Origin: Bacteroidota bacterium
Lineage (GTDB): Bacteria; Bacteroidota; Ignavibacteria; Kapaibacteriales; NICIL-2
Length of the DNA stretch: 62,894 nt
NCBI GenBank assembly: GCA_046052705.1
Contig: JBJOLU010000227.1
Span: 1-62,894 of the forward strand
Direction of reading: 5' to 3'
The first letter of the stretch is position 1. Every line of letters starts with the position of its first letter. Shown piece by piece: positions 11,000-62,894 of the stretch. A program made the position numbers and the translations under genes. A model generated the notes under the pieces. That model did not search any database and was not told the origin of the DNA. It was given only the letters and a program-made list of their open reading frames with translations.

Positions 11000-12874
11000 T
11001 TACCGCCTGCCGTCAGGTCTGAGGTCGATTCGCGGGGCACCCAACTGCCATTGCACACCCAGCCCAGTGCTCTCCATCTTGATCGACATCTGCCTGCCAC
11101 GTACCCGCGTAAATACTTGGCCGGTGAATTGTTCAATAGGCACTGTTGCCGTACGCGTTACTGCCGCAGAGTTACTACCCCCGACTGACGCGGGGTTGTT
11201 ATAGCCCGAGCCCGAGTTGGCGAGAGGCAACAGATACATGGTTGCGCTTGGACTCACGGCCGTCGATCCTCGGAATGTCACGTCCGGCAGCATGCGGTAG
11301 ATGAACGCAAAGTTATGCCCGTCGTCGATGTCGAATTCCGACGAGGTAATGTAGGCGTTGATGGGCGCGGGCACGCCAGTGGAATTGTCATCCACTCCAG
11401 TTTCGTGATTCACCAAGTTGTTCAGGTATGTCGCTGCAACTGGGTAAGTGCGCAACCCGCTGTCGATCCAAGCTGTGCGCGCCATGGTGCCGTAGTACCA
11501 GACATCTTCGAGGTAGTTGTACACCACGTACCGGTCGATTGTCGTAGAGTTGGCGCTGCAATAAAACCACCAGACTTCGTTGAAGCCTTCGTTTGTACTG
11601 GCAAAGACTTGGCCGCGCTGCGCCGCGTTGAAATCGCTGAATACGAACTGCTTCAAATCGCAACGTAAAGTGTCGACCCGGCCGTCGTATTTGTAAAACT
11701 TGTCGATGCCCATCCAATACACTACGCCGCTGCCGATTGCTCGGGCGTTTTGTCCGGCCAAGGATAGGTTGTCGCCCAGAAGCTGTGTCCCCCAGACTTC
11801 GGGTGCGCCTAGGTACTGCAACGCGTAGAGCGCCGAATCAGTCCAGACGAGAATTTCCTGACGAGTTTGCAGGCACGTCACAATCTCTGACCCATGCGAC
11901 AACCGCACACTACCTGCTTGGTTCGTGGCAGCAGGCGTCCAATTCACCGCGCTTTCCTGATCTGACCAACGAATCAGCATCGGATCATAAGTCGATGACA
12001 AATAATCTGTCGTTCCGAAAGCGAATACAAACCGGCTCGTGTCTGACACAAACACAAAGTTGGCTTGCGTGGGTACGTTAGACGCCCCGGATAAGGAAGA
12101 CAGCGCGACGCCTCGGGTTGTAAGACCTGCCGATGCGTCCCAATAGTAGATGCCACCACCGCGCGGATTGAAGATCAGGTCCTCGCCAAAATTGTTTTGG
12201 CTCCACACACGCAAGCTGTCTGGCAACGCGGACGCCGTGATGCCCCACGAACCACTGCCCCATGTTCCCGCGCCCCAGCCGGTTAGTGGTACTGTAAAAG
12301 CTGGGCCTGTTGGAATCTGATACGCTGCCGACACGGACGCCCCGCCGCCGGGCGACCCCGCCACGTCTGTGGCATTAGCCGTAGCCGCTACGGTAATCGT
12401 GTAGCTGTTACTGTTGATTACGGTAACTTGATATTCCTGATTCAGCACTGATGCACTGATGTTCCCCCCTAGCCCGACTGCGCTACTGAAGGTCACAAAG
12501 TCTCCTGTGGAACAGCCATGCGCCGTGTGCGCGACGGTAATTACCGATGAATTCAGTGTGGCCGTGAAAGGATTATTCAGCGTAACTGTGGCCCGGATCG
12601 GCGTGATGTCGTAATACGCCCCGCCCGACTCGATATAAAACTTGAGATTAGTGCCGACGCCCATCAGGTTCAAATTAGCGAGCGTGACCCAATTCCACAG
12701 GCTCCGGCACACCCCTAAATAGGTGTTGGCGGAAATACGCTCCCACCCACCGATCTTTTCGGGCGTACCTTGGCGAAACCGGATTTTATCTCCGTCATAC
12801 CAGCCGCCCTCCGCCGTATATCGCGTTCCTTCTCTCCACATGCCCGGTCGCAACTGTAACTTCTTAAGAGCCAT
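11000..12874 (-). CDS. Virion structural protein (putative tail tubular/nozzle protein)
   Basis: 624-aa ORF. The N-terminus MALKKLQLRPGMWREGTRYTAEGGWYDGDKIRFRQGTPEKIGGWERI is a motif I recall from podovirus tail proteins; position supports the call. Confidence 0.45.
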   Translation of the reverse strand: MALKKLQLRPGMWREGTRYTAEGGWYDGDKIRFRQGTPEKIGGWERISANTYLGVCRSLWNWVTLANLNLMGVGTNLKFYIESGGAYYDITPIRATVTLNNPFTATLNSSVITVAHTAHGCSTGDFVTFSSAVGLGGNISASVLNQEYQVTVINSNSYTITVAATANATDVAGSPGGGASVSAAYQIPTGPAFTVPLTGWGAGTWGSGSWGITASALPDSLRVWSQNNFGEDLIFNPRGGGIYYWDASAGLTTRGVALSSLSGASNVPTQANFVFVSDTSRFVFAFGTTDYLSSTYDPMLIRWSDQESAVNWTPAATNQAGSVRLSHGSEIVTCLQTRQEILVWTDSALYALQYLGAPEVWGTQLLGDNLSLAGQNARAIGSGVVYWMGIDKFYKYDGRVDTLRCDLKQFVFSDFNAAQRGQVFASTNEGFNEVWWFYCSANSTTIDRYVVYNYLEDVWYYGTMARTAWIDSGLRTYPVAATYLNNLVNHETGVDDNSTGVPAPINAYITSSEFDIDDGHNFAFIYRMLPDVTFRGSTAVSPSATMYLLPLANSGSGYNNPASVGGSNSAAVTRTATVPIEQFTGQVFTRVRGRQMSIKMESTGLGVQWQLGAPRIDLRPDGRR

Positions 12875-13628
12875 TTGTTTTCTCCGCCCTTTTTTTGTCC
12901 CAATATGCTTTTTTAGCCGCGCTCAACCGGTCGCGCGTTTCTTGACTTACATTGCCTTTAATCTCTTTCAGCTTGGCAATGGTTTCTGCGCTGTGCTTGC
13001 GTCCGGTCATAATTTCCCGCAGTTTTTGTTTTGCCTCTTCGGGGTACGGCCCGCGTTTTGACCCGGTCTGTCGCGCCGTAACCGCTTGGCCGAACTCTGG
13101 AGGTCGCTTCCATTTCGAGGATGCTTCGGCGATTTTCCGTTTCCACTCTTCAGAAAACGGCGCCCTTTTAACGCCAAGTTTTGATTGCCTAATTTTTTCT
13201 TTGGTTTCTTGGGACGTTGGCTGGCGGCTTTCTGCACTCCAGCGTCTTAATGCCGCCAAATGTTCGGCAGAAAGTTTTTTGCCTTTGTTTGCTGCGCTGA
13301 TTTTTTGGCGCACTTCTTGGGTGTAGACAACAGCGCCATTCACGTTGAGGTTGTAACACGCTATTCCCTCATCTAACATTTTACGGATTAATAATGACTC
13401 AAATTTCCGACAATCGTCATATGATCCGATAGCAATAATTTGTCGTGAAAAATCTTGAGGTCGAATTTTATACTGCGCTTTAACATGCTTTGATGAGCAA
13501 ATGTAACCATCATCTACGCTCCCCTTGTGGAAGCCGACGTATAGCTTGTCACTTTCTTTATCCGTCCAGCAATAAACAAAACAATTTTGCTCTTTGGTTT
13601 GGAAGTTTTGCATGTTTTTTGCCGGCAC
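12864..13628 (-). CDS. Free-standing GIY-YIG homing endonuclease with NUMOD3-type repeats
   Basis: N-terminal FVYCWTDKESDKLYVGFHKG (GIY-YIG-like); C-terminal repeated S/T-x-E-x-K-x-K-I/L units (NUMOD3-like); GTG start preceded by AAGGGGG; wedged between endolysin and tail genes. Confidence 0.75.
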   Translation of the reverse strand: MPAKNMQNFQTKEQNCFVYCWTDKESDKLYVGFHKGSVDDGYICSSKHVKAQYKIRPQDFSRQIIAIGSYDDCRKFESLLIRKMLDEGIACYNLNVNGAVVYTQEVRQKISAANKGKKLSAEHLAALRRWSAESRQPTSQETKEKIRQSKLGVKRAPFSEEWKRKIAEASSKWKRPPEFGQAVTARQTGSKRGPYPEEAKQKLREIMTGRKHSAETIAKLKEIKGNVSQETRDRLSAAKKAYWDKKRAEKTNGS

Positions 13629-33917: not shown

Positions 33918-36422
33918 TCAATAATATGCCTTTTTTCGCCGCCATCCGATTTCCTCGTCAGGCTCGTCGGTCTGTAACCGCAAAAATCCACCCTGCCTAA
34001 ACCGGATGAGGGCCTGCACCGAGCTATCCAATAAGTCATCGTGCTCCGCATTAGGAAATCTCGCCATTTCCTCAATTACTTCATCAGCCCACCTCGCGTC
34101 CGGTGCCCATACTTTACCCGAGGCAAACAAATCTGTAACCGAATTGAGACGCGCAAATTTGTCATTACCGCGCGATGGCGTATATTCACTAACCGGAATA
34201 CCCATACGCCTTAACTCAAATATCAACGGCGCCCCAGCTGCCTTCGCTTCAATAATAAATGCGTCAGGCTCCCATTCTTTCCACGAATTAAATGCTGCTT
34301 GTTTTAATTCCGGGAACTCCCATTTATCCTTAAACGCATCCAGCAATATGATATTCACATCATTGGGGTCTTCGTTAAGATTAAAAATACCCCAAGTCGT
34401 ACAGGCCGAATAGTCCGACCTCTCGCCTTTGGTAAAGGCTGTATCCCAAGACTGGATAATGAATTCACAATTAGGCGGACGATCTTTATTCCATATACGC
34501 CACCACTCACGCTTAATAATCGCACCCGCTTCGCCAGTCGGCTGTTGCTGGTACTGTGCGTTCCACTTGTAGGAAGGTAACTCTTCTTTAAGAGCAAGAA
34601 GCTCTTCGAGACTCCAGAACTCAGGCCATAGAGGTGCGCCCGATGGAAGGATGGCCGGTAGCTCGATCACTTCCCATTCGTCCTCGTGTCGTGAGTTCCT
34701 AATGATCTTGCCCGTTAAGTCCTTGTCACTCCAGCGAGTCATAATTACGACAATGGCCGCCCCTGGCTGGAGACGTTGCCGTGGTCCGGAGGTGTACCAT
34801 TCATACACGCCGTCAAATACGGTCGGGTCGCCTTGGGCTAACTTGGCCTCTTGCTCGCTGTGCGGGTCATCGATGATAAGAAGGTCAGCACCTTTACCTG
34901 TCACCGTACCTCCAACGCCGATAGCAAAATAGCTACCCCCACCCGAGGTATCCCAGCGTCCAGCCGCTTTGCTATCAGCCCGAAGATCAACACTCGGAAA
35001 CACTTTCTTATAGTGATCCGACCCAACCAGGTTTCGAACCTTCCGTCCGAAGCCAACAGCCAATTCCGCCGTGTTTGAACATTGGATAACTTTCTTCTCC
35101 GGGTACTTTCCTAAAAACCAAGCCGGCAAAAGAAACGAGCCAAACTCGGATTTGGTGTTGTGCGTACAAATGTAGCCTTCTCCGGCCAAAAACAAACCGT
35201 CTTGACGAGCTACCTTGATACATTGCGTACTGCCAGTTTCGTTTAGTTTTTCTACTTTGATGTACCTTCCGAATGCTGGCTTGTACTTGATCGTCCGATT
35301 TTCTTTCCTGTCTAAATGAGCAATGTTGGAAGCATAAAAGCTAATCCTCCATGTCTTGCCGTAGCTTTTGTCTCCAATTTTTGCCTCGGTAGAGATCAAT
35401 GAGTTCTTAATCCCAAGGCTGGCTAGAAGTTCGCGCACTTGATTGATGAGACTCAAGTTGCTTTGCGCGAAGAAACATTGACCTGCTTTTGACACGTTGC
35501 CATCCGTGTCCATCAGACCTTTGAGCAACCATCTACGTTGATCTACGCTACCCATCAGATACGCCTGCGGGATGTGTTTGTTCCCTAACACACCAAGATC
35601 GCGGAGTTTTTCTTTTAGACCCAAAACTCCGAACGTCATCGGGGTAGATTGGGCAGTCGTTCTGTACCCAAGCGCCTCGAACATTTGCCGAATGCCAACC
35701 TGATCGTCATCGTGACAGGTAATTACCCCTTGATTCTTGTGCCCATCACCGAGCCATACACCAAGAACATAGGGTGCTATCGGCAAGGATTGCCGTTCGT
35801 AAATGACGGGATTCACGTCAGGCAATCTTGGCAATCGTGGATTTTTGACATGCCCCGCCAAGAAGTGTGTGCTCCCACCTCTACCCATTCTCAGCACTTC
35901 ACCGTTCTGCCTACGCCATAACTCTTCAGTCGTGAAGTCGTGATAGACATCGTGCTTTCGGTGCAACCTAACCGTCCAAAGATGCTCGCCATCAACATCC
36001 AGGCTGAATCCATCATCCGTAGTCACGCGATAAATGTCTCTATCGTGAAACACTTCTGATTTTCCAATTACCTCTGTTGGAATCCCATCAGGCCCGAAAA
36101 CATAATCGCCAACCAATAAGTCGGCCATCGTTTTCCATCCGTTCAATGTTGGTATCTTCATATCTAACCTTATCGCGTGCCGAGGGGCCATGTTGATGAT
36201 GAGTCTCTTCACCTTCCCCGCCGCGATTTCCTCGAACTTCTTCGCCATCAAAGCATGGTGCCGACCGTGGATAAACGACGGCCACATCATCTTCACAAAC
36301 GCCATGAAGTCCGCTTGCGCCTTCTCCCGCTCCAGCGCCTCTTTATATGCGCCTACCTGAGCCAACAACTTCTGTTGCTCATTCTCAGGCAGCTTAGAAA
36401 TCAACGCGGCCAAGTCGCTCAT
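33918..36422 (-). CDS. terL: Terminase large subunit interrupted by a 340-aa intein
   Basis: Exteins: INMAPRH|TKSE (P-loop), LLIIDDPH (Walker B), C-terminal RNase-H-like nuclease motifs (QSWDTAF, IIEAKAAG, EHDDLLDS); 494 aa after intein removal. Confidence 0.9.
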   Translation of the reverse strand: MSDLAALISKLPENEQQKLLAQVGAYKEALEREKAQADFMAFVKMMWPSFIHGRHHALMAKKFEEIAAGKVKRLIINMAPRHAIRLDMKIPTLNGWKTMADLLVGDYVFGPDGIPTEVIGKSEVFHDRDIYRVTTDDGFSLDVDGEHLWTVRLHRKHDVYHDFTTEELWRRQNGEVLRMGRGGSTHFLAGHVKNPRLPRLPDVNPVIYERQSLPIAPYVLGVWLGDGHKNQGVITCHDDDQVGIRQMFEALGYRTTAQSTPMTFGVLGLKEKLRDLGVLGNKHIPQAYLMGSVDQRRWLLKGLMDTDGNVSKAGQCFFAQSNLSLINQVRELLASLGIKNSLISTEAKIGDKSYGKTWRISFYASNIAHLDRKENRTIKYKPAFGRYIKVEKLNETGSTQCIKVARQDGLFLAGEGYICTHNTKSEFGSFLLPAWFLGKYPEKKVIQCSNTAELAVGFGRKVRNLVGSDHYKKVFPSVDLRADSKAAGRWDTSGGGSYFAIGVGGTVTGKGADLLIIDDPHSEQEAKLAQGDPTVFDGVYEWYTSGPRQRLQPGAAIVVIMTRWSDKDLTGKIIRNSRHEDEWEVIELPAILPSGAPLWPEFWSLEELLALKEELPSYKWNAQYQQQPTGEAGAIIKREWWRIWNKDRPPNCEFIIQSWDTAFTKGERSDYSACTTWGIFNLNEDPNDVNIILLDAFKDKWEFPELKQAAFNSWKEWEPDAFIIEAKAAGAPLIFELRRMGIPVSEYTPSRGNDKFARLNSVTDLFASGKVWAPDARWADEVIEEMARFPNAEHDDLLDSSVQALIRFRQGGFLRLQTDEPDEEIGWRRKKAYY
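35157..36176 (-). mobile_element. Intein (residues 83-422 of TerL) with LAGLIDADG homing-endonuclease domain; Ala1, class-3-like WCT signature
   Basis: Starts AIRLDMKIPTLNGWKTMADLLVGDYV (block A with Ala1), DGEHLW (block B His+Trp), LGVWLGDG and LLKGLMDTDG (LAGLIDADG x2), TQCIKV (block F Cys), GYICTHN|T (block G, +1 Thr). Confidence 0.85.
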
Positions 36423-39757: not shown

Positions 39758-40273
39758 ATGGAAACACCATCTGTATACGTCGGCACCTATGCCAAATATA
39801 ACTCGGGCAGTATCAAGGGCGCGTGGATCAATCTCGAAGACTACGCAGGAGACCGCGAGGGCTTCTATGCCGCATGCGCCGAGCTGCATTCGGACGAAGC
39901 TGACCCTGAATTTATGTTTCAAGATTTCCAATGTTTCCCGCGTGAGTTTTACTCTGAAAGCGGCCTGCCCGAAGAATTGTTTGAATGGCTGGAGCTTGAT
40001 GACTATGACCGCGAGTTGCTGGAAAAGTACGCTGAGGCAACCGGGTACGACATCACCGAACTAACGATAGAGAATGCCCGTGAAGCATTCTGGGGCCGGT
40101 TCGATTCTGGCGCGGATGCTGCCCAGCAGATTGCAGAAGAGTCTGGCGCGGTTCCGAAAGACTTACCGTGCTGGATCGTCATTGACTGGCAAGATTCGTG
40201 GGACAGTAACCTTCGTCATGATTATTGCACGGCTGGTCGGCATGGCGATCTGTGGATTTTCTCGAATCGCTGA
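39758..40273 (+). CDS. ardA: ArdA-type anti-restriction protein (DNA mimic, anti type I R-M)
   Basis: VYVGTYAKYNSGSIKGAWINL ... EADPEFMFQDFQCFPREFYSESG ... acidic; matches ArdA signature from memory. Confidence 0.85.
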   Translation: METPSVYVGTYAKYNSGSIKGAWINLEDYAGDREGFYAACAELHSDEADPEFMFQDFQCFPREFYSESGLPEELFEWLELDDYDRELLEKYAEATGYDITELTIENAREAFWGRFDSGADAAQQIAEESGAVPKDLPCWIVIDWQDSWDSNLRHDYCTAGRHGDLWIFSNR

Positions 40274-50735: not shown

Positions 50736-50936
50736 CTATTGTTTGTTGTTATTCCCCTCACGCACTTCCTCAACAATTCGTCCGGCATTTATCAACTTCA
50801 TCGTTGCCGATCTTGCTTCATCAACTGTTCCATAACTTGTATTCGTGGCAGGAATCCAGAACGGCCACCACCAATACTTAACATCGATACTGAAACTGCC
50901 TATCTCTGTGCTTTTGATCCGATACCTATTCTTCAC
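50736..50936 (-). CDS. Small hypothetical protein (66 aa)
   Basis: ORF. Confidence 0.45.
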   Translation of the reverse strand: MKNRYRIKSTEIGSFSIDVKYWWWPFWIPATNTSYGTVDEARSATMKLINAGRIVEEVREGNNNKQ

Positions 50937-50944
50937 CTATCACC

Positions 50945-51241
50945 TCAAATCAACCCCGCCATGCGTTGTTGTACCGCGTGCTCTGCCTCCGCAACTGCGG
51001 CCGTACCCTGTTCCTTCTCCATGATCCTCTTGAAGTGCTGCCACTTCGATGCCTCCCATTGAAGATGAGCCATCATGGGCTGCTGGCTCAAGATGATCGC
51101 GTGCTGATGATCCACGATATCCTGCAGCCGACGAACTTCATCCTGTAGCTTGTCACATTTCTGCCGCAACTCTCCGTATGTAAAGTTACGCTCTGGCTTC
51201 GACAGAACAGGGATGTTAGGTACTGACGGGATGCGGTTCAT
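50945..51241 (-). CDS. First gene of leftward early cluster, coiled-coil (98 aa)
   Basis: GGAGAG SD; ORF. Confidence 0.55.
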   Translation of the reverse strand: MNRIPSVPNIPVLSKPERNFTYGELRQKCDKLQDEVRRLQDIVDHQHAIILSQQPMMAHLQWEASKWQHFKRIMEKEQGTAAVAEAEHAVQQRMAGLI

Positions 51242-51345
51242 ACAGACTCTCCAAGTTCATGCCCCGTGGCATGTGTTGTAATGAGTAGCATGCTAACAGG
51301 TAGGAACACAGTAACAATAGTGCACTGTGGCACTCAGTACTTCCC

Positions 51346-51475
51346 CCAACACGGCTGGCGACTGGCTATCTGGCTCACCGCATCCGAAGAATACCTCTAG
51401 CGCCAGGACTTCGGACTATTGATGGGCTTACCAAGATTTCGCGCTATCTTAGAGTCCAATCGCCATGCGTGTTGG
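51346..51475 (-). ncRNA. Structured RNA candidate, copy U1 (130 nt, Y-shaped, 5 helices); family not recognised
   Basis: CCAACACG...CGTGTTGG closing stem; helices covary with copy U2; wobble pairs are G.U only on minus strand. Confidence 0.6.
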
Positions 51476-51476
51476 T

Positions 51477-51588
51477 TGTTGATGACGGGATTCAAACCCG
51501 CAACCGTCCCCTGCCGAGGCCGCTCTATCTTTCGTCTGCCGACTAGCTGGTTTCAATATATGCCAGCTTTCAGTTGAGCTACACCAAC
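51477..51588 (-). ncRNA. tRNA-like element / degenerate tRNA (112 nt)
   Basis: Acceptor GTTGGTG/CATCAAC (one G.U), U8, T-arm GCGGG-TTTGAAT-CCCGT. Between them there are ~45 extra nt, a 6-bp stem AGCTGG/CCAGCT with a 12-nt loop, and no canonical anticodon loop. The T-loop has U where C56 is expected. Confidence 0.45.
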
Positions 51589-51706
51589 ACGGCTGAGTAC
51601 TGGCTATCTGGTCAGTTTCATTCGAAGTTTCCTAGGACTGTCGGAATTATTAACTGGCTTACCAAGGGTTCGCGCCCCCTCGGACTCCAATACTCATGCG
51701 TGTTGG
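51584..51706 (-). ncRNA. Structured RNA candidate, copy U2 (123 nt), paralogue of U1
   Basis: Same architecture as U1 with compensatory substitutions; its 3' strand overlaps the tRNA-like acceptor stem by 5 nt. Confidence 0.6.
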
Positions 51707-51943
51707 ATGTTGGCGAAATAGGACTTTCTTAACGCGCCATGACAGCGCCCCGCCCCGTAACGCCAACAAGGAAGCAAGCCAGAAGCCACGAATTCTATCC
51801 CCTGTAGTTGAGGATACTCCTGACTTGCTTTCCTGTTAGCCCCCGTCTCTCCGGGGTGTCCGTTGTCATCTGTGGATCACACGCCTCGCCATGGTTCGAG
51901 TCCGACAACATGACATATTGTAGTACGTTAACCCACAAGTCTA

Positions 51944-52366
51944 CTACCCGTTGATGATCGACCTGATATGACTTAACTGCTCAGGACTGACTTCAACTCT
52001 AGCCCGTAGAACGTGTTCGCATTCCTCCCACGGCGGACACGAACAACCCGTGTCAGGTAAAGAGAAGTCCGTTCGTGAAGTCATCGGGCCAACAATCAGA
52101 CTCGCGTTCTTCTGTGCCAGTCTGTTCATGGCGTTCTCATAAGCCTTCTTAGACTTCACTTGCTTACTTCGTTTAGCCGTCTTGGTCTGTGCTGTAGGCT
52201 GAGTGTTCTTAACAGGCCGCTTAAGATGAGCAGGCATCCACTTCATGAACGGCCACAACTCCACAGCGTCGATCACATACCAAGTCTTTTTGATTGCATC
52301 CCATCTAGCGCCTAATCTTTTGGCACTCTCTTTTTCAGCATACGGTACGTTTAAGTCGACTCGCAT
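51944..52366 (-). CDS. DUF5710-like domain protein (140 aa; start trimmed to MRVDLNVPY)
   Basis: LNVPYAEKESAKRLGARWDAIKKTWYV matches the L-x-VP-x-x-EK-x-x-AK-x-LGARWD-x3-K-x-WY motif from memory; basic linker; C-terminal CSCPPWEECEH. Confidence 0.55.
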   Translation of the reverse strand: MRVDLNVPYAEKESAKRLGARWDAIKKTWYVIDAVELWPFMKWMPAHLKRPVKNTQPTAQTKTAKRSKQVKSKKAYENAMNRLAQKNASLIVGPMTSRTDFSLPDTGCSCPPWEECEHVLRARVEVSPEQLSHIRSIING

Positions 52367-52800
52367 ATTCAGTCTCGTCAGGATCACGTGGCATGCGGGA
52401 TAGGAAACGCATAGGAACTCTGGGCAAAACCTTCCCAAGGGCAGCCTACGAAGGCAACCCTCGGGATGTATCCAATGGCTCATGCTAGATTAGGTATCCG
52501 CTGAGTCACCCCATCGCTCAACCCCGGCCTAACCCGTGTTGAGTCGCAGTCTTTTGCCTATCAGGAGGCTCACACCGAGCACTGCGCCACTCGATACTTT
52601 GAGTGCATCCCGCTCTTGCTGGTCTGGTGCGATTGTTCCAGCTTTAAGCTACTGCCCACCGTTTCCATACGTCCGTCCTAAGGTACTACCCTTTCGCCGC
52701 CGCCATGACGCTTTACGGTTACTCAGTTCCTACCCGAGGTATCGGGACTTAAGTGACTCTTAAACAGAAGCCGAGTTGAAGCGAGCCAGAAAAGCAAAAA

Positions 52801-52932
52801 CCCCAGAGTGCTTAAGTGGGGCATGGCCCTGGCATGGGCAACCAACAATGCGATAGGAACAACGCACCACTGATTACACATGCCCCACTTGAACATTCTG
52901 GGGTAAGTTATTGTTCCTATAGACATTGTTGG
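52801..52932 (+). repeat. Two interleaved long inverted repeats (A/A' ~25 bp, B/B' ~21 bp): pseudoknot or mutually exclusive hairpins
   Basis: A 52801-52825 CCCCAGAGTGCTTAAGTGGGGCATG vs A' 52879-52903 CATGCCCCACTTGAACATTCTGGGG; B 52842-52862 CCAACAATGCGATAGGAACAA vs B' 52911-52932 TTGTTCCTATAGACATTGTTGG; order is A-B-A'-B'. Confidence 0.6.
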
Positions 52933-52972
52933 GATGCCGCCCAACAGGAGAAATCTTGCCTAACCTCACGTA

Positions 52973-53002
52973 TTACGTCAAGAGGGTGACGTAACTTTTT
53001 TT
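52973..53002 (+). terminator. Terminator-like hairpin + T7 on the plus strand
   Basis: TTACGTCA-agaggg-TGACGTAA-C-TTTTTTT; no plus-strand CDS upstream. Confidence 0.45.
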
Positions 53003-53005
53003 ACT

Positions 53006-53045
53006 TCTATGAGTCTCTATGGGAGTTCTATAAGGTTCTATGAGG
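53006..53045. repeat. Four iteron-like direct repeats TCTATRRG phased 10-11 bp
   Basis: CTAT at 53007, 53017, 53028, 53038 (TTCTATGAG, CTCTATGGG, TTCTATAAG, TTCTATGAG); adjacent to T7 tract; between convergent hairpins. Confidence 0.6.
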
Positions 53046-53064
53046 TTTCTGCTAGAACTTCAGA

Positions 53065-53086
53065 CCGCCCACCCGGAGATGGGCGG
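53065..53086 (-). terminator. GC-rich hairpin just 3' of the Cys-rich peptide ORF (weak U-tract)
   Basis: CCGCCCA-cccggaga-TGGGCGG, 8 nt after the stop. Confidence 0.4.
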
Positions 53087-53093
53087 GCGTTGC

Positions 53094-53249
53094 TTAGAAA
53101 CAGCGCGTGACGCACTGACCCTCTGGTGTGCAGCATATGGTACATGGCACCACACGATCTCCGACCATCATCGTGAAGTGAGTGCAGTTAGCCCATGCCG
53201 CCAGCGGGATGCCGACTAAGGCGAGGCCAACTAAGATTTTGCGTTTCAT
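53094..53249 (-). CDS. Secreted Cys-rich mini-peptide (51 aa precursor, ~31 aa mature, 6 Cys)
   Basis: AAAGGAAAATC-ATG; MKRKILVGLALVGIPLAAWA|NCTHFTMMVGDRVVPCTICCTPEGQCVTRCF; below ORF-track cut-off. Confidence 0.55.
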   Translation of the reverse strand: MKRKILVGLALVGIPLAAWANCTHFTMMVGDRVVPCTICCTPEGQCVTRCF

Positions 53250-53255
53250 GATTTT

Positions 53256-53328
53256 CCTTTCTCGGTTTCACTGGCAGATACCAGTGAGAGTAGGCACTGT
53301 GCATACTGACTGCGCATCCCGAGAAAGG
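53256..53328 (-). promoter_or_regulatory. Leader with 10-bp stem that sequesters the SD of the Cys-rich peptide gene
   Basis: CCTTTCTCGG (53319-53328 on minus) pairs perfectly with CCGAGAAAGG (53256-53265), which contains the SD; inner hairpin CACTGG-n6-CCAGTG 53269-53286. Confidence 0.45.
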
Positions 53329-53353
53329 ATTGGCGCACAATGCCCACTCTGAC

Positions 53354-53428
53354 TGGTGCTCCCTCTAGGAATCGAACCCAGATAAGCTGATTACAAATCA
53401 GCCGTAATAACCGTTATACGAAGGGAGC
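53354..53428 (-). tRNA. tRNA-Thr (anticodon UGU), CCA encoded
   Basis: GCTCCCT acceptor / AGGGAGC, D-arm with A14 G18 G19 A21, anticodon arm GCTGA-TTTGTAA-TCAGC, T-arm CTGGG-TTCGATT-CCTAG, ACCA end; 75 nt. Confidence 0.9.
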
Positions 53429-53534
53429 GGATCAAGCTGGACAGCATTCCCCCAGGCACCGACGCCTGGGGGGACACCGCTCTCATGGAGGACGAGATAA
53501 CAACGAGCACAACCGAAAGGAAAGTTGCCTCTAA

Positions 53535-53563
53535 AAGATAGCTTGAGTCCCTGTATCGGTCAA
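53535..53563 (-). promoter_or_regulatory. Sigma70-like promoter for the tRNA unit (TTGACC-17-TATCTT)
   Basis: Read on minus strand directly after terminator 53568-53595. Confidence 0.45.
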
Positions 53564-53567
53564 GAGC

Positions 53568-53595
53568 AAAAAAAAGGCCCTCAACTAAGAGGGCC
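53568..53595 (-). terminator. Rho-independent terminator after the VRR-NUC-like gene
   Basis: Minus strand GGCCCTC-TTAGTT-GAGGGCC followed by TTTTTTTT. Confidence 0.8.
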
Positions 53596-53631
53596 AAAAC
53601 TCACTCGAACCGGAGATACAACCCCACTACT

Positions 53632-53910
53632 TTACACCACGCCCTTCATAACTGCAAGGGCCGCCTGGATGCTATCTACTACATATGCCGGACCACCTGT
53701 CCACGTGTCGAAGAACTTCTGCTCGTTCTCTGTTAGCTTCCGCGCCGACGGTGGCTTGTTGCCATCTTTCACTTCAAACAACAGCGTTTTTCCCTCGTAA
53801 CCTACGATCAGATCACAGGGTTGATCGATGAAATACACCGTGGCGCCCGCGTCACGCAACGCTTTCACAATAGATGATTCGTTATCGTCCCGCCTCGCTG
53901 CTCTTCGCAT
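53632..53910 (-). CDS. VRR-NUC / PD-(D/E)xK small nuclease-like protein
   Basis: 92 aa; ESSIVKALRDAG ... CDLIVGYEGKTLLFEVKDG ... pattern. Confidence 0.5.
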   Translation of the reverse strand: MRRAARRDDNESSIVKALRDAGATVYFIDQPCDLIVGYEGKTLLFEVKDGNKPPSARKLTENEQKFFDTWTGGPAYVVDSIQAALAVMKGVV

Positions 53911-58943: not shown

Positions 58944-59206
58944 ATAATCAGCTAACCAATAAACAACGGGAGCACTTGGCAAGAGTCAAGTCGCTCCCTT
59001 GTTCTGTATGTGATGCCTATCCACCTTCGGAGGCCCACCACATCAATCAAGGCGATCAATACACCTGTGTCGCCTTATGTGCCGACTGCCACCGAGGTAG
59101 CCTAAACGGACTCCATGGGCAGCGCCGGATGTGGAAAGTTAAAAAGATGGATGAATTGTCGGCGCTCAACGTCACCATCGAGCGCCTTCTGGACTCACTC
59201 CTTTAG
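58940..59206 (+). CDS. HNH-type nuclease resembling P1 Ref (RecA-dependent nuclease) family
   Basis: LPCSVCDAYPPSEAHHI ... ALCADCHRGSLNGLHG. Confidence 0.55.
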   Translation: MNNQLTNKQREHLARVKSLPCSVCDAYPPSEAHHINQGDQYTCVALCADCHRGSLNGLHGQRRMWKVKKMDELSALNVTIERLLDSLL

Positions 59207-62200
59207 AGCCACCCGCAGTTCTTCAGCCTGACGTGCGATCTCTGCGATGATGAGTTTCGCACGATCAATCTCTTGCCTCTTTTCTGCTCCCGTCATATTC
59301 GGATTGGCCGTGATGATGCTGATGTACTTCCGCATCCTCGACATGTCATCCGATGCTTTATCGTAGAACTTAGCCAGCTTGATCTTATCGGCCTGGTCGA
59401 TGGCGATCTTCTGCGCTTTCTCAATTTCTCCCAGTGTTGCATAGTGGCGCATGTCCGCCATGGCTTGTTGAATCTTCTGGTTATTGTCGTAGAACGAAGT
59501 AACAAACTTCGATTGAGTCGCCGGAAGTTCTTTGACGAAACCCATTGAGAACGTATCCGCGTACTTCATGTCTGGATACGCGCCCTTGGAGAACGGCATC
59601 GCTGCGTAATGGGCTGTGGAGGTAGCCATGGCTCCCAGCCATCCAAAGTATCCCTTGATGAGATATTCAATCTGGACGGGAGACAGTTCCGCTTTCTCCG
59701 TGGTCACGGTTGCGATGGCCTTACTTACCCCGCCAAGCCCTTTGCCGATCCAAGAAGTCGAATCTGCAACACGTTCTTGTTTGGACAATTTCTCCATGCC
59801 CGCCGTTTCAATCGGCGCACCGGTAAAGCTGTCTTTGTTGGCGTAGATATCTAGAACAGGCTTGAACATCTGCGGGATAGGATTAATCGCAAAGGTATCG
59901 GATAGCATCCGTGTCATCGCCTCACCGAACACTTTGCCTTCTGCCCCTTGATCGACAATCTGCTCCAGCGATCTTTCGACCAACGTCCCGAACGCACCCA
60001 GTTCGAACGGTTTGGGGATACGGAAGGCATGTTCCATCCCAGGGAATTTTATCCACCAGAAGTTGTCACGGTCCCACTGTTCGCGCTTCTTGAACTCTTC
60101 GTCATCCTTAAAGGCATAGTACAACGCGGCAGAGGCCAAACCTACTCCGGCCAGAACAATCGCAAATCTTTCGCCCTTTTTCTTGTCGGACTCACTGATT
60201 TCTTTGCCCGTCAGACTGCTGTAAATGAGCCTATAGGTCGGAGTAATCCCGTCACGACCCAATTTGTACAGCCCTTGGACTCGCGCATTCAAGAACGGAA
60301 TCACCATCGTCAAACGACGGAATGCCGGGAACGAACCATGCAGGGTGAAATCCATCAGGTCTTTGGCATGGAACGACGCTTCCAAGTGCGACATCCCTTT
60401 GGCTCGGGCCTGTTGATAGATCGCCAGACGGTTGGCGTTTTCCATCTTGTTGCCCCACTCTTCGTACTTGTTGTACAGGTACTTGAGCCCGTTCTTGATC
60501 TTCTCTGGGGAGTCCAGAATGGTATTGTCTGGGACACCGGCTTTGACGAGACGCTTGATATTCTCGGACATCCCGCCTTCCATCGCGGCCCCGAACTTCA
60601 TCATGCCACCACCCGCCAAGGCGCCGATGTAATTCGGGTCTTTCGGGTCGTAGAAGTTCATGCCTTCGATAGCATTCATCACCGGGTTCTTTTTGATGTC
60701 TGCGATCGAGATAGCCGACACCGAATCGCGGATCAAGTTACGAACCCGGAATGCTGGAGAAATGGTCACGCCGAACTGAAGCATGTTCTTGAAGTTCTTG
60801 GCGACATCCAGCCACTTTCCTTGTGGCCCTAACCAGGTGATGCCAGCGATGGAATCCAAGAGGAGCGGATCATTAACTTCGTAGTACACCGGCATCCCGT
60901 CTTTGATTACGCTGACTGTGCCTGGCTTCTTGGTTGTGTGCCCCGGCAACAACTTACCGAGTACTTCTCTGCCATCTTTCGTTACCTTGTAGACAAGCCC
61001 GTTTTCGTACTCATACTGCGCTTTCATACTTGGACGCACTACATCCAGCTTTGACTGCTCAGCGGCCTGCAATACTTTGGTAGCTGCGATGTTCTTCATC
61101 GAAGCTGAAAGGATGTGAGACCAGTTCTGTACGATGTTCTGCATCAGATCGCCAAAGGCCAACTCTTTATTGCCCTTCAATTCTTTGCTGAAGAATTGAT
61201 CGGTCAGCTTCTCCCCCGACGTGGGAACGAGTTCGCCTTCCTCTGTGATCTTGTACATAGGAACGTAGTACAAGTCGCTGCTGAATCTTTTGTATCCTTC
61301 TTTGTCGATGATTCCTGCTTCCTTGGCAACATCAAGCACGGACTTGTTTAGCGCGTTCATCTTGCGCCGCACTTCGTTGTAGACCTCTGCACGCGGCCGA
61401 CCGCCTACATCGCCTTCAATCATTTCATCCTTAGCCTGCAACGCCTGGCTGGAGAATGAACGCTTTTCTTCTGGCAGATTTGCATCACGGCTCATCGCCA
61501 TCCAGACCAAGAACCGATCAACCTCTTTCCCTAAAGGTCTGAACGCTTCGTAAAGTCCTTCCGTGTTGGGTTTGATATTCAGCGCACCGCCGTCATTGAA
61601 CACCTGTCCATGAAACAGAAGCCCTTCCACTGCACCATCCACGGTGTTGGACATCCGCGCCAGCATGTATCCTTCGTCGCTGTACTTTTTGATCGCGCGA
61701 TACTTATCTAAGAATCCTTGTGCCATGCGCTCCCAGAATTTTTCACGCATGGAATTGATGCGATCGACTACGGTCTCTGGCTTAGGATTAAATCGACGCT
61801 GGATTTCCGCTTTGAGAGCATCGCTCTTAATGTCGCTGAACGATTCTGTTTCGATCTTTTCTTTCGGCGGCAGAACTTTGGCTTCGACCTTCCGGGCGAT
61901 TTCTTCTACTTTGCCCGGAGCACGGAGGCTCTTTGCCTCGCTTGTTGCGCGCCGCTCACCCGTTTTCAACTCACCGCGCTCAACCTTGCCGAAAATTTGT
62001 TCCGGCGATTCCACCTTGGTGAGCGCCGACTTGATTGCTTGGAACAGATTACGCAAGCGCGTCAGCAACGACTGGATCAATCCTGACGGAGCTTTCTTGG
62101 CATCGAAGTCAGCGAAAGCATCGGCCACCGCTTCTTCGGTGATCTTCTCCATGTCGCCGTTGTACTCACGCATGTAGGCGTCGTAGCGAGACTCTTCTCC

Positions 62201-62894
62201 GGCTCTCAGTGGCTTTCCATCTACGTCACGTTGCTTCAGATACTGGTCAATCCACTTGTCCTTAGCCATCTTGGACAGCGTTTTCCACTGGGCATCGGTG
62301 AAGAAGCCTAGCTCCCGGAGAGCATGGATAGCTTCATGGCGCAGATCACGGATGGGGTTGGCAGAGTCCGACGCGATCTTGATAAGTTGCTGTGCGTAGG
62401 AGCCTGCTTCCTTCAAGCCATCCACAAGGTTCAGACCAACATCTTTCAGGCCGAACTTGTTGAGCGTGGTGCGGAGGGTTTGTTCGAAGTCTGCGACTTG
62501 TTGTGCACGCTCTCCACCGAGGGATTTCTTTTCTTTCGGTTGAATTGGCTTGAGAAATGGAGCTGGAACTGCGGGCTGTTGTCCAAATAGATATTCCTGC
62601 ATCGATGCAATACTTGCCGGAGGGATGGTTCCTCCTTTTCCCGGTGTTTCACTTTTGAATGCCTGTGAGTTGAACCGGTCGCCTCTTGATTCTGCTTCGG
62701 CAATGGCATTGTCAATGAGCCACTGTGTTGCGTATTTTTCGCTTTTCTGTTTTGGGTATGGCGTCGTAAATCTGCCTGAAGAAGTAGAAAACACATCCCC
62801 GCCACGAATAGGCTGTTTATCCACAGGCCGTCCCTCGTAATCAAGTACCCGAGGTTCAAGAGCTTGTTGGACTTCTGGAGCTTTCCGCTCAATA
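59195..62894 (-). CDS. C-terminal part of the wrap-around ~1901-aa virion protein (unique portion 59195..62773 = 1192 aa + stop; track ORF 59195..62824 starts at an internal GTG)
   Basis: Frame remains open upstream of 62824 to the window end and joins 1..2127. It is large, helical and polyvalent-protein-like. Its stop overlaps the convergent gene 58940..59206 by 12 nt. Confidence 0.8.
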   Translation of the reverse strand, partial: IERKAPEVQQALEPRVLDYEGRPVDKQPIRGGDVFSTSSGRFTTPYPKQKSEKYATQWLIDNAIAEAESRGDRFNSQAFKSETPGKGGTIPPASIASMQEYLFGQQPAVPAPFLKPIQPKEKKSLGGERAQQVADFEQTLRTTLNKFGLKDVGLNLVDGLKEAGSYAQQLIKIASDSANPIRDLRHEAIHALRELGFFTDAQWKTLSKMAKDKWIDQYLKQRDVDGKPLRAGEESRYDAYMREYNGDMEKITEEAVADAFADFDAKKAPSGLIQSLLTRLRNLFQAIKSALTKVESPEQIFGKVERGELKTGERRATSEAKSLRAPGKVEEIARKVEAKVLPPKEKIETESFSDIKSDALKAEIQRRFNPKPETVVDRINSMREKFWERMAQGFLDKYRAIKKYSDEGYMLARMSNTVDGAVEGLLFHGQVFNDGGALNIKPNTEGLYEAFRPLGKEVDRFLVWMAMSRDANLPEEKRSFSSQALQAKDEMIEGDVGGRPRAEVYNEVRRKMNALNKSVLDVAKEAGIIDKEGYKRFSSDLYYVPMYKITEEGELVPTSGEKLTDQFFSKELKGNKELAFGDLMQNIVQNWSHILSASMKNIAATKVLQAAEQSKLDVVRPSMKAQYEYENGLVYKVTKDGREVLGKLLPGHTTKKPGTVSVIKDGMPVYYEVNDPLLLDSIAGITWLGPQGKWLDVAKNFKNMLQFGVTISPAFRVRNLIRDSVSAISIADIKKNPVMNAIEGMNFYDPKDPNYIGALAGGGMMKFGAAMEGGMSENIKRLVKAGVPDNTILDSPEKIKNGLKYLYNKYEEWGNKMENANRLAIYQQARAKGMSHLEASFHAKDLMDFTLHGSFPAFRRLTMVIPFLNARVQGLYKLGRDGITPTYRLIYSSLTGKEISESDKKKGERFAIVLAGVGLASAALYYAFKDDEEFKKREQWDRDNFWWIKFPGMEHAFRIPKPFELGAFGTLVERSLEQIVDQGAEGKVFGEAMTRMLSDTFAINPIPQMFKPVLDIYANKDSFTGAPIETAGMEKLSKQERVADSTSWIGKGLGGVSKAIATVTTEKAELSPVQIEYLIKGYFGWLGAMATSTAHYAAMPFSKGAYPDMKYADTFSMGFVKELPATQSKFVTSFYDNNQKIQQAMADMRHYATLGEIEKAQKIAIDQADKIKLAKFYDKASDDMSRMRKYISIITANPNMTGAEKRQEIDRAKLIIAEIARQAEELRVALKE
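62774..62894. repeat. Terminal direct duplication, copy 2 (identical to 1..121)
   Basis: Direct comparison. Confidence 0.95.

Follow-up and report, generated by a model that had tools for sequence, protein, structure and literature searches.

The window analysed here is the whole 62,894-nucleotide (nt) stretch of contig JBJOLU010000227.1. Its Pfam matches, which include capsid protein, terminase, SU10-type adaptor proteins, helicase and primase, identify this ~63-kb stretch as phage DNA, and no close relative of the phage is present in GenBank. Nearly all genes between 2 kb and 53.9 kb lie on the minus strand. Few credible open reading frames (ORFs) are found between 51242 and ~53630, that is, between orf98 (50945-51241), which forms the border on the early-gene side, and a VRR-NUC-like gene (53632-53910) at the opposite border. 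The minus strand carries every feature that we describe for this ORF-poor stretch, or island. Between 51861 and 51346 it holds an RNA array of ~520 nt, a chain of separate, independently closed modules of 60-135 nt, each with homologues of its own elsewhere. Two kinds of module alternate: L modules, hairpins in which a near-invariant basal stem of ~20 base pairs (bp) carries a hypervariable structured tip of 10-110 nt (the cargo), and S modules, which are tRNA-sized and closed by an acceptor-like helix.

Along the minus strand the array opens with two leader hairpins (51770-51856), a CCCCG-n6-CGGGG hairpin at 51841-51856 and a 64-nt hairpin at 51770-51833. S module 1 (51708-51768) is a minihelix closed by UGUUGGCG/CGCCAACA, with a fold z-score of -3.0, and the U-CCA that follows it is the start of the next L module. 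This is L module B (51584-51706), in which the conserved basal stem bears a cargo in the form of a three-way junction. S module 2 (51477-51589) comes next, followed by L module A (51346-51475), again with the conserved basal stem and a cargo, and then by orf98 and the early genes. A first-pass annotation made from the sequence had described modules A and B as two covarying RNA paralogues (its paralogues 1 and 2) and S module 2 as a tRNA-like element, and both descriptions are borne out. The paralogues are 76% identical, 10 of their 37 pairs are compensated, and they fold with z-scores of -4.6 and -4.5; S module 2 scores 31.2 bits with the Rfam tRNA model, for which the cut-off is 29. For a 546-nt segment spanning the array, the predicted fold has -211 kcal/mol (z = -4.8) and includes both L hairpins in full. 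The L covariance model finds no further copy elsewhere in the 62.9-kb window.

The ORF-poor stretch is a mosaic of several transcription units and this one ~520-nt array, and not a single large RNA; outside the array it consists of ordinary phage intergenic parts: the gene for tRNA-Thr, a patch of the operator or iteron type, two small genes and a terminator-like hairpin. What stands of the proposed ~2.2-kb RNA island is that the stretch is ORF-poor, RNA-rich and located beside tRNAs, but structured RNA is demonstrable over only about half of it (~1.0-1.1 kb of the 2.2 kb). The five hairpins named in it all exist, three of them 5-10 nt lower than first placed (51709-51767, 51770-51833 and 51841-51856). 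The statement that the stretch outside its two coding sequences is packed with hairpins does not extend to 52484-52800 (-), which folds no better than shuffles (z = +1.3) and was rejected as structured RNA. GOLLD and ROOL, raised as candidates, are single RNAs of 400-800 nt with Rfam models. The window locus resembles them in being phage-borne and beside tRNAs, but is a chain of 60-135-nt units without a model match: apart from terminator-type matches at chance level, Rfam cmscan gave tRNA alone, both for the whole window (gathering threshold) and for 50900-53700 (E <= 10). No Rfam family other than tRNA reached E <= 0.01 in the island, and nothing matched over the L modules.

The L module: stem, cargo and distribution

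The basal stem reads CCAAsACG-CA-UGrGGAUUG…CAGUCyyCA-Gy-CGUGUUGG, with the variable tip between its arms, and is built of 9 bp, a 2x2 C·C/A·G internal loop and a further 9-11 bp that include a conserved U·G wobble. Pairing was counted in 140 aligned, trimmed elements, with column shuffles and slid partners as controls. Stem cells were paired in 90.1% of cases, compared with 84.0% in column shuffles and 32-46% when the partners were slid. Both sides change in 12 of the 20 pairs, and not one of the five measures was reached in 500 shuffles. Covariation is free in the upper stem, where one position is G-C in 83 elements, A-U in 42 and G·U in 12, and the U·G wobble is kept in 124 of the 140; C-to-U changes opposite G are common, and non-pairs number 0-5 per position. 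Since G·U is favoured over A·C, it is this strand that folds, as a single strand. The L stem is a selected, strand-specific fold.

The tips fall into at least 156 sequence classes among 285 unique modules, 104 of them singletons. The class found in the window, the three-way junction, has 15 members, shows compensation at 15 of 36 pairs and retains single strands that are invariant, such as AGAUAGCCAG, or conserved, such as (C/U)AGAUAG(C/U)CAGU. A T arm is present in a few L cargos (L105 and L188; L-numbers are labels of IMG/VR loci, of which L001-L080 are the protein-anchored set described below). Given the conserved loops and covarying stems within cargo classes, and the conserved classes of S module, both tips and S bodies are under selection.

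To find relatives, 80 IMG/VR loci were fetched via a neighbouring PD-(D/E)XK exonuclease, 53-62% identical to that of the window, and scanned with a covariance model built from the two window L copies. The same basal stem appeared in 11 of the 80, on the same relative strand and 0.5-3 kb upstream of the exonuclease, while the interiors of the matches were different or much shorter. The arms are extremely conserved although the adjacent proteins are only 53-62% identical. Searches by pattern extended the family well beyond these loci: ACGCATG-N(25-55)-CAGYCGTGTTGG matched at least 120 loci in IMG/VR, the same arms with N(86-116) matched at least 119, and a 29-base exact pattern matched at least 120 loci in Joint Genome Institute (JGI) metagenomes. 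A pattern taken from the window cargo loops matched nothing in IMG/VR, because the arms and not the loops are the conserved part. At least 312 L modules, 285 of them unique, were counted in 247 of 314 viral loci, with lengths of 40-140 nt and up to four modules per locus.

Bacterial genomes (596 Gb) yielded 112 pattern matches where ~270 were expected by chance, and only ~5 of these pass the stem test, all on small contigs of Burkholderiales or Sterolibacterium metagenome-assembled genomes; with so few true copies the L module was rejected as a host element. Among GenBank phages, blastn with the island, a consensus L module and the array gave no L module, only matches to the tRNA-Thr and to T arms. 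Rfam 15 has no entry matching L modules, since only tRNA-type matches came from L188, from 22 related loci, from the window and, at E <= 10, from the island; the arm sequences, looked for in 8 million published papers and preprints, brought up chance matches only. A csRNA survey of IMG/VR reports 10,006 unnamed candidates, among which the L motif may be included (PMC10690425). The L/S family is large, uncatalogued and phage-specific; it is confined to uncultured phages, which are probably phages of betaproteobacteria.

The genes that flank the arrays are co-oriented with them. Across 131 element-bearing loci, the commonest neighbours are a terminase large subunit downstream (52 loci) and a VRR-NUC-like gene upstream (27 loci). 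A second phage group, 52 of the 131 IMG/VR loci, carries the L/S unit just upstream of the small and large terminase genes, and the family is therefore common to phages with different genome layouts. Conservation of the island in related phages had been set as a check on its reality, with a graveyard of pseudogenes as the outcome that would speak against it. The related phages do carry covarying homologous RNA modules, and not protein genes, but the island as a whole lacks syntenic conservation, its recurrence elsewhere being limited to single modules. No decayed protein genes were detected by tblastx against ~300 related loci or nhmmer against ~420, every island segment being covered; protein-like homology in these searches is confined to the flanking VRR-NUC gene and a small Cys-rich ORF.

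S modules and the junctions with tRNA ends

S modules have a median length of 83 nt (range 62-145 nt) and share a closing, acceptor-like helix, UGUUGGUG/CACCAACA, which is followed by A-C-C. Between consecutive L modules we found 37 distinct spacers of 23-140 nt, tRNA-like in character, nearly all of them closed by (U)GUUGGUG...CA(C/U)CAAC(A) and then continuing with A and the next CCA. The closure was scored with an exact core, because allowing G·U at any position let 45% of shuffles pass. Of 252 cases, 178 have CCAACA at most 200 nt downstream of L; the corresponding count is 9 in shuffles and 33 on the upstream side. The full 8-bp closure is found in 149 of the 252. Where no L module follows, the bases after the closure are A in 114, C in 105 and C/T in 118 of 133 cases (86%, 79% and 89%). 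With an acceptor-type helix followed by R73-C74-C75, S modules have the form of RNase P substrates, for which, in bacteria, R73-C74-C75 is a determinant.

The bodies between the closing strands vary from near-canonical tRNAs (L116, L198 and L191) through T-arm-only forms and kissing-loop mimics to minihelices; one class has two hairpin loops that are complementary to each other (GGCUGAU/AUCAGC). Some S modules lie above the Rfam tRNA cut-off: S module 2 of the window and one of L188, which reaches 40.9 bits with an 83-nt insert. S module 2 is closed by an acceptor-like helix of 8 bp, has a canonical T arm and a D stem whose loop holds an insert of 46 nt, and is followed by A-CCA. The site of its anticodon arm has 14 nt where 17 nt are expected and forms a 4-bp stem with a 4-nt loop. 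It has no 7-nt anticodon loop and is not called by ARAGORN, which finds only the tRNA-Thr. S module 2 is a tRNA mimic, not a decoding tRNA, and has homologues with compensatory changes in L178, L186 and L331. Homologues of S module 1 are found in L099 (two copies), L101, L322, L342 and L347.

L modules are joined in register to real tRNAs as well as to S modules. In six loci (L025, L146, L149, L160, L165 and L198) the encoded CCA of a real tRNA is itself the CCA that opens the 5' arm of an L module, the junction being ...N-CCA|A(C/G)ACGCAUG; the tRNAs concerned are for Met (two), Gly (two) and Thr (two). Of 22 tRNAs called by ARAGORN in element-bearing loci, 19 lie at 0-350 nt from an L module and 20 are on the same strand. 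The 5' arm of an L module thus starts at the CCA of the preceding tRNA or S module, and its 3' arm supplies the 5' acceptor strand of the next S module. Because the arms are shared in this way, each L hairpin fills the whole gap between two tRNA-like units and keeps both their ends sequestered. The clearest array was seen at L188, 300-1000 (-), where three L modules alternate with two S modules and a strong intrinsic terminator stands at the end; one of the two S modules has a canonical D arm and T arm, with the 83-nt insert in place of the anticodon arm.

Possible roles of the array

We think it probable, with modest confidence, that the core of the stretch is a polycistronic array of tRNA-derived small structured RNAs, laid out on the plan of a tRNA operon and cut by host enzymes. 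Around the arrays, terminators on the sense strand outnumber antisense ones 30 to 6. Sense terminators lie upstream of the array in 19 of 104 cases and downstream in 11 of 104, and from this excess upstream we place the arrays at the head of transcription units. The array would be transcribed with its flanking genes, the L state folding first, and host enzymes would cut the transcript at its tRNA-like punctuation. Cleavage by RNase P would fall on the 5' side of the S acceptor, with A73-C74-C75 as determinant, and A-CC would be the site of 3'-end trimming and of the CCA-adding enzyme. The 20-bp L stem, at about two helical turns (9 bp, 2x2 loop, 9-11 bp), has the size of an RNase III site and might be cut by that enzyme, which would leave the GUUGG strand available for closing the S acceptor. 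The products would be stable tRNA mimics and hairpin RNAs.

Such an arrangement has parallels. The TMERs of murine gammaherpesvirus 68 (MHV68) consist of viral tRNA-like units followed by hairpins and are cut by tRNA-processing enzymes, and the MALAT1/mascRNA pair is similar. As in these, tRNA-like, non-decoding units alternate with hairpin RNAs, with which they would share one transcript in the L/S array as well, and the borders of the modules are tRNA 5' and 3' ends. The L/S array differs in belonging to a bacterial virus, with neither RNA polymerase III nor Dicer, and in that its processing is predicted from sequence; the L stem, moreover, is its most conserved part and joins, by base pairing, the CCA end of a unit to the leader of the unit after it, and the cargo classes of the array number in the hundreds. 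Also comparable are the species 1 and 2 RNAs of T4 and the C4 RNA of P1 and P7, stable phage RNAs that lie by tRNAs or are processed by RNase P. These too are small stable RNAs beside phage tRNAs, matured by tRNA enzymes as L/S modules would be, but they are single genes in single phages, without a shared scaffold, array logic or hypervariable cargo. To our knowledge, tRNA-punctuated arrays of non-coding RNAs have been described so far only in eukaryotic viruses and genes, and if tRNA enzymes excise the modules, the L/S array would be a case from a bacterial virus. That tRNA-like units punctuate small RNAs is a known idea; we found no described counterpart for the scaffold, the CCA fusion, the L/S alternation or the breadth of cargo, and there is a real chance that the array represents a distinct system.

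Phage non-coding RNAs are poorly catalogued, and the L/S family is abundant. Its 40-nt scaffold is near base-identical across phages that share little else, is fused to the CCA ends of tRNAs and bears over 150 unrelated structured inserts, a design that implies a highly conserved recognition partner and a modular route to new small RNAs. Our guess is that the released RNAs act in trans, as mimics or decoys, on host machinery that recognises tRNAs or on host defences. We tentatively entertain, as a possibility that is open to considerable doubt, that the L/S array is a phage RNA-display system, in which an invariant scaffold and acceptor helix are read by a conserved host factor and let phages express and mature diversifying RNAs that act in trans against tRNA-targeting defences or against the translation or RNA-decay machinery. 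If so, it would be the equivalent, at the level of RNA, of a hotspot for accessory genes (morons), or an arms-race locus consisting of RNA alone, with a repertoire of tRNA mimics, aptamer-like tips and decoys. If our reading of a processed array is right, it would also offer many candidate tRNA mimics to set against tRNA-directed anti-phage systems, and its scaffold might be usable as an RNA-expression tool.

Several points weigh against a processed array of this kind. Transcription of the array and its cleavage sites are predictions from genomic anatomy. The GUUGG of the L 3' arm is also the 5' strand of the S acceptor, so that the two helices are mutually exclusive, and the predicted minimum free energy (MFE) favours the L state, in which the S acceptor would be unformed. 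The CCA itself is present in only 58% of L 5' arms, the others starting with CUA or UCA, as is better explained by pairing than by a mature tRNA end, and terminal S modules mostly end in ACC-U rather than ACCA. Position 11 of the 5' arm (columns 11/52) is C-G in 82 of the 140 elements and an uncompensated mismatch, mostly G·G, in 54. As the elements were sampled with exact arm patterns, part of the arm invariance comes from the search itself; the arms of the protein-anchored loci L001-L080 do not differ from those of the pattern-found loci. Finally, neighbour clustering of the 131 loci gave no constant protein neighbour of the arrays, and a Pfam search of 50 window ORFs, all neighbours of the array included, gave no TROVE, RNA ligase, RNase or nucleotidyltransferase domain; neither analysis turned up an integrase or a protein for RNA binding or RNA processing. 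With no partner protein among these ORFs or the recurrent neighbours, the factor that constrains the stem and holds 40 nt nearly constant is presumably encoded by the host.

The strongest alternative to excision of trans-acting RNAs is a purely cis-acting role of the L hairpins in RNA processing, stability or insulation, with functionless tips and S bodies. L hairpins would then have their counterparts in the processing stems of rRNA operons or in the RNase III sites that lie between early genes of T7, and would separate the tRNA-like units and protect flanking mRNA ends. A stem of ~20-22 bp with an internal loop is of RNase III substrate size, and the T7 hairpins likewise combine a ~20-bp stem and an internal loop with a place between the cistrons of a polycistronic phage transcript. 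The arrays lie between operons, with a sense terminator upstream in those 19 of 104 cases and predicted read-through into terminase or early genes, and the hypervariability of the tips, in at least 156 classes, also fits a cis role. We nevertheless consider a purely cis role rather unlikely. The tips are large, structured and selected, as the 15 compensated pairs of 36 attest, and S classes are conserved across unrelated loci; the L stem, in turn, is near-invariant across unrelated phages and fused to tRNA-like ends, and its 40 near-invariant nucleotides are more than RNase III needs.

It is improbable, in our view, that the hairpins work as folded single-stranded DNA, either as attC-like recombination sites or as single-strand initiation or priming signals. 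attC sites have conserved R and L boxes around a variable terminal structure, and the L modules follow a similar layout: paired outer boxes with AAC/GTT, an unpaired central spacer, a tip that may be only a few nt long or may be branched, a strand-specific fold and an occurrence in arrays. The island also lies between replication and recombination genes and beside a gene for DUF5710, a primase-associated domain. However, no integrase (tyrosine recombinase) was detected by Pfam in the 50 window ORFs, a set that leaves some small ORFs unscanned. What separates the hairpins is 23-140 nt with tRNA-like RNAs, not ORF cassettes, and the 2x2 loop is symmetric, without extrahelical bases or bulges. 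The elements are always co-oriented with transcription, and their in-register fusion to tRNA CCA and acceptor strands makes sense only as RNA.

Still less probable is that the modules are selfish palindromic repeats, similar to miniature inverted-repeat transposable elements, or decayed tRNA genes, accumulating without function in a tolerant hotspot. They are multicopy, have inverted-repeat ends and occupy variable intergenic sites, S modules resemble degenerate tRNAs, and other content of the island is unconserved among relatives. Functionless repeats would not account for the compensatory substitutions in both stems and cargos, the preference for G·U over A·C, the strict single-strand orientation in fixed register to tRNA ends, or the extreme conservation of the arms beside proteins only 53-62% identical, and the window has no further copy in its 62.9 kb.

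Least probable of all seems a Y-RNA-like role, with the stem as binding site for a Ro60/Rsr-type or other ring protein and the tip as tether for an effector. Y RNAs share the architecture of L modules, in which the two ends pair into a conserved long stem and the apical domain is variable or resembles tRNA, as with the T arm in L105 and L188. YrlA RNAs, which have a conserved long terminal stem and a tRNA-mimicking domain, occur in phages (PMC4201824). In the L/S array, however, tRNA mimic (S) and long stem (L) are separate, alternating modules. YrlA is encoded within 4 kb of Ro60 on the same strand (PMC4201824), but neither the 50 window ORFs nor the recurrent neighbours of the 131 loci include TROVE/Ro60. 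L/S loci also lack a sequence or covariance-model match to YrlA: there is no Rfam match at E <= 10 over the modules, nor in 22 related loci (the Y-RNA content of Rfam 15 being unverified), and by reading of the sequence the GNCGAA motif of YrlA is absent in register. Two further candidates were rejected: a put-like antiterminator, the HK022 element being ~70 nt with two adjacent stem-loops just downstream of an early promoter (PMC9378689) and the L module one long hairpin of 40-140 nt in up to four copies, with only the leader position in common; and ribozymes and riboswitches, for which Rfam returns only tRNA-type matches.

Other parts of the stretch and of the window

Upstream of the array, the VRR-NUC-like gene ends in an intrinsic terminator at 53568-53595 (-), GGCCCUC-loop-GAGGGCC followed by U8, which was found by terminator scan and also gives sub-threshold terminator-type alignments in Rfam. 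A bona fide tRNA, as first annotated, lies at 53354-53428 (-); it is a tRNA-Thr(UGU) with encoded CCA, called by ARAGORN and scoring 60.2 bits with Rfam. From its CCA to the Shine-Dalgarno sequence of a 51-amino-acid (aa) ORF runs a structured 104-nt leader (53250-53353, -) with an inverted repeat and two hairpins (MFE -44.7 kcal/mol, z = -4.6), for which nhmmer found no homologue in the ~420 related loci. An alternative 11-bp pairing within it (53255-53265/53319-53329) would sequester the Shine-Dalgarno sequence of the small ORF.

The 51-aa ORF itself (53094-53249, -) has a signal-peptide-like N-terminus and a Cys-rich C-terminus and no Pfam match. Homologues at 42-50% identity were found by tblastn in L137 (9232-9378) and L146 (698-844), in both cases beside L arrays. 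Its codon score is poor, and it is easily missed in annotation. The second small gene (51944-52366, -) encodes 141 aa from an ATG at 52366 and is the sole ORF of the stretch with a family match, to DUF5710 (Pfam PF18974, E = 1.4e-17); tblastx and tblastn gave no homologue of the protein among related loci. These two are the short coding sequences that had been proposed, the one upheld by its homologues in two loci and the other by Pfam, and all other ORFs of at least 30 aa in the stretch have negative codon-usage log-odds when trained on window genes.

A patch of the protein-binding type, assigned to no strand, occupies 52973-53044. It combines a palindrome, TTACGTCA-N6-TGACGTAA (52973-52994), which overlaps a weak minus-strand TTGACG -35 element, with four TCTATRRG repeats at 10-11 bp spacing (53006-53044), the iteron-like repeats of the first-pass annotation; of the seven copies of TCTATRRG in the window, four are inside these 40 bp. 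The patch looks like an operator or iteron patch, and a promoter role may be suggested from its motifs.

The inverted repeats previously noted at 52800-52825/52879-52904 are present and form the 26-bp stem of a giant hairpin (52790-52904, -; z = -5.5), ACCCCAG...GUGGGGCAUG / CAUGCCCCAC...CUGGGGU followed by the U-tract UUUUUGCUUUU. Homologues, in which the stem is conserved and the interior variable, are found in L025 (4768-4908), L062 (5891-6025), L317 (575-719), L341 (6821-6961) and L398 (1601-1741). The giant hairpin is a second scaffold-type RNA, located in the window directly downstream of the putative palindromic operator and weak putative promoter, and might function either as a small RNA in its own right or as a terminator of unusual size. 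Between it and the DUF5710 gene lies a spacer of ~300 nt (52484-52789, -) with no detectable structure or coding signal; its stray ORFs have negative coding scores, and its homologues among the related loci amount to none by tblastx and one marginal nhmmer match (L050, E = 0.003, among ~420).

Elsewhere in the window, the terminase large subunit (33918-36422, -) has a C-terminal Terminase_6C domain and an internal LAGLIDADG_3 domain, which suggests an intein or a homing-endonuclease insertion. An ORF with a NUMOD3 motif amid the structural genes (12864-13628, -) is probably a free-standing homing endonuclease. An ArdA antirestriction protein is encoded at 39758-40273 (+), and 59195-62824 (-) codes for over 1209 aa that include an LPD38 'large polyvalent protein' domain; both proteins are typical of early or injected anti-defence equipment.

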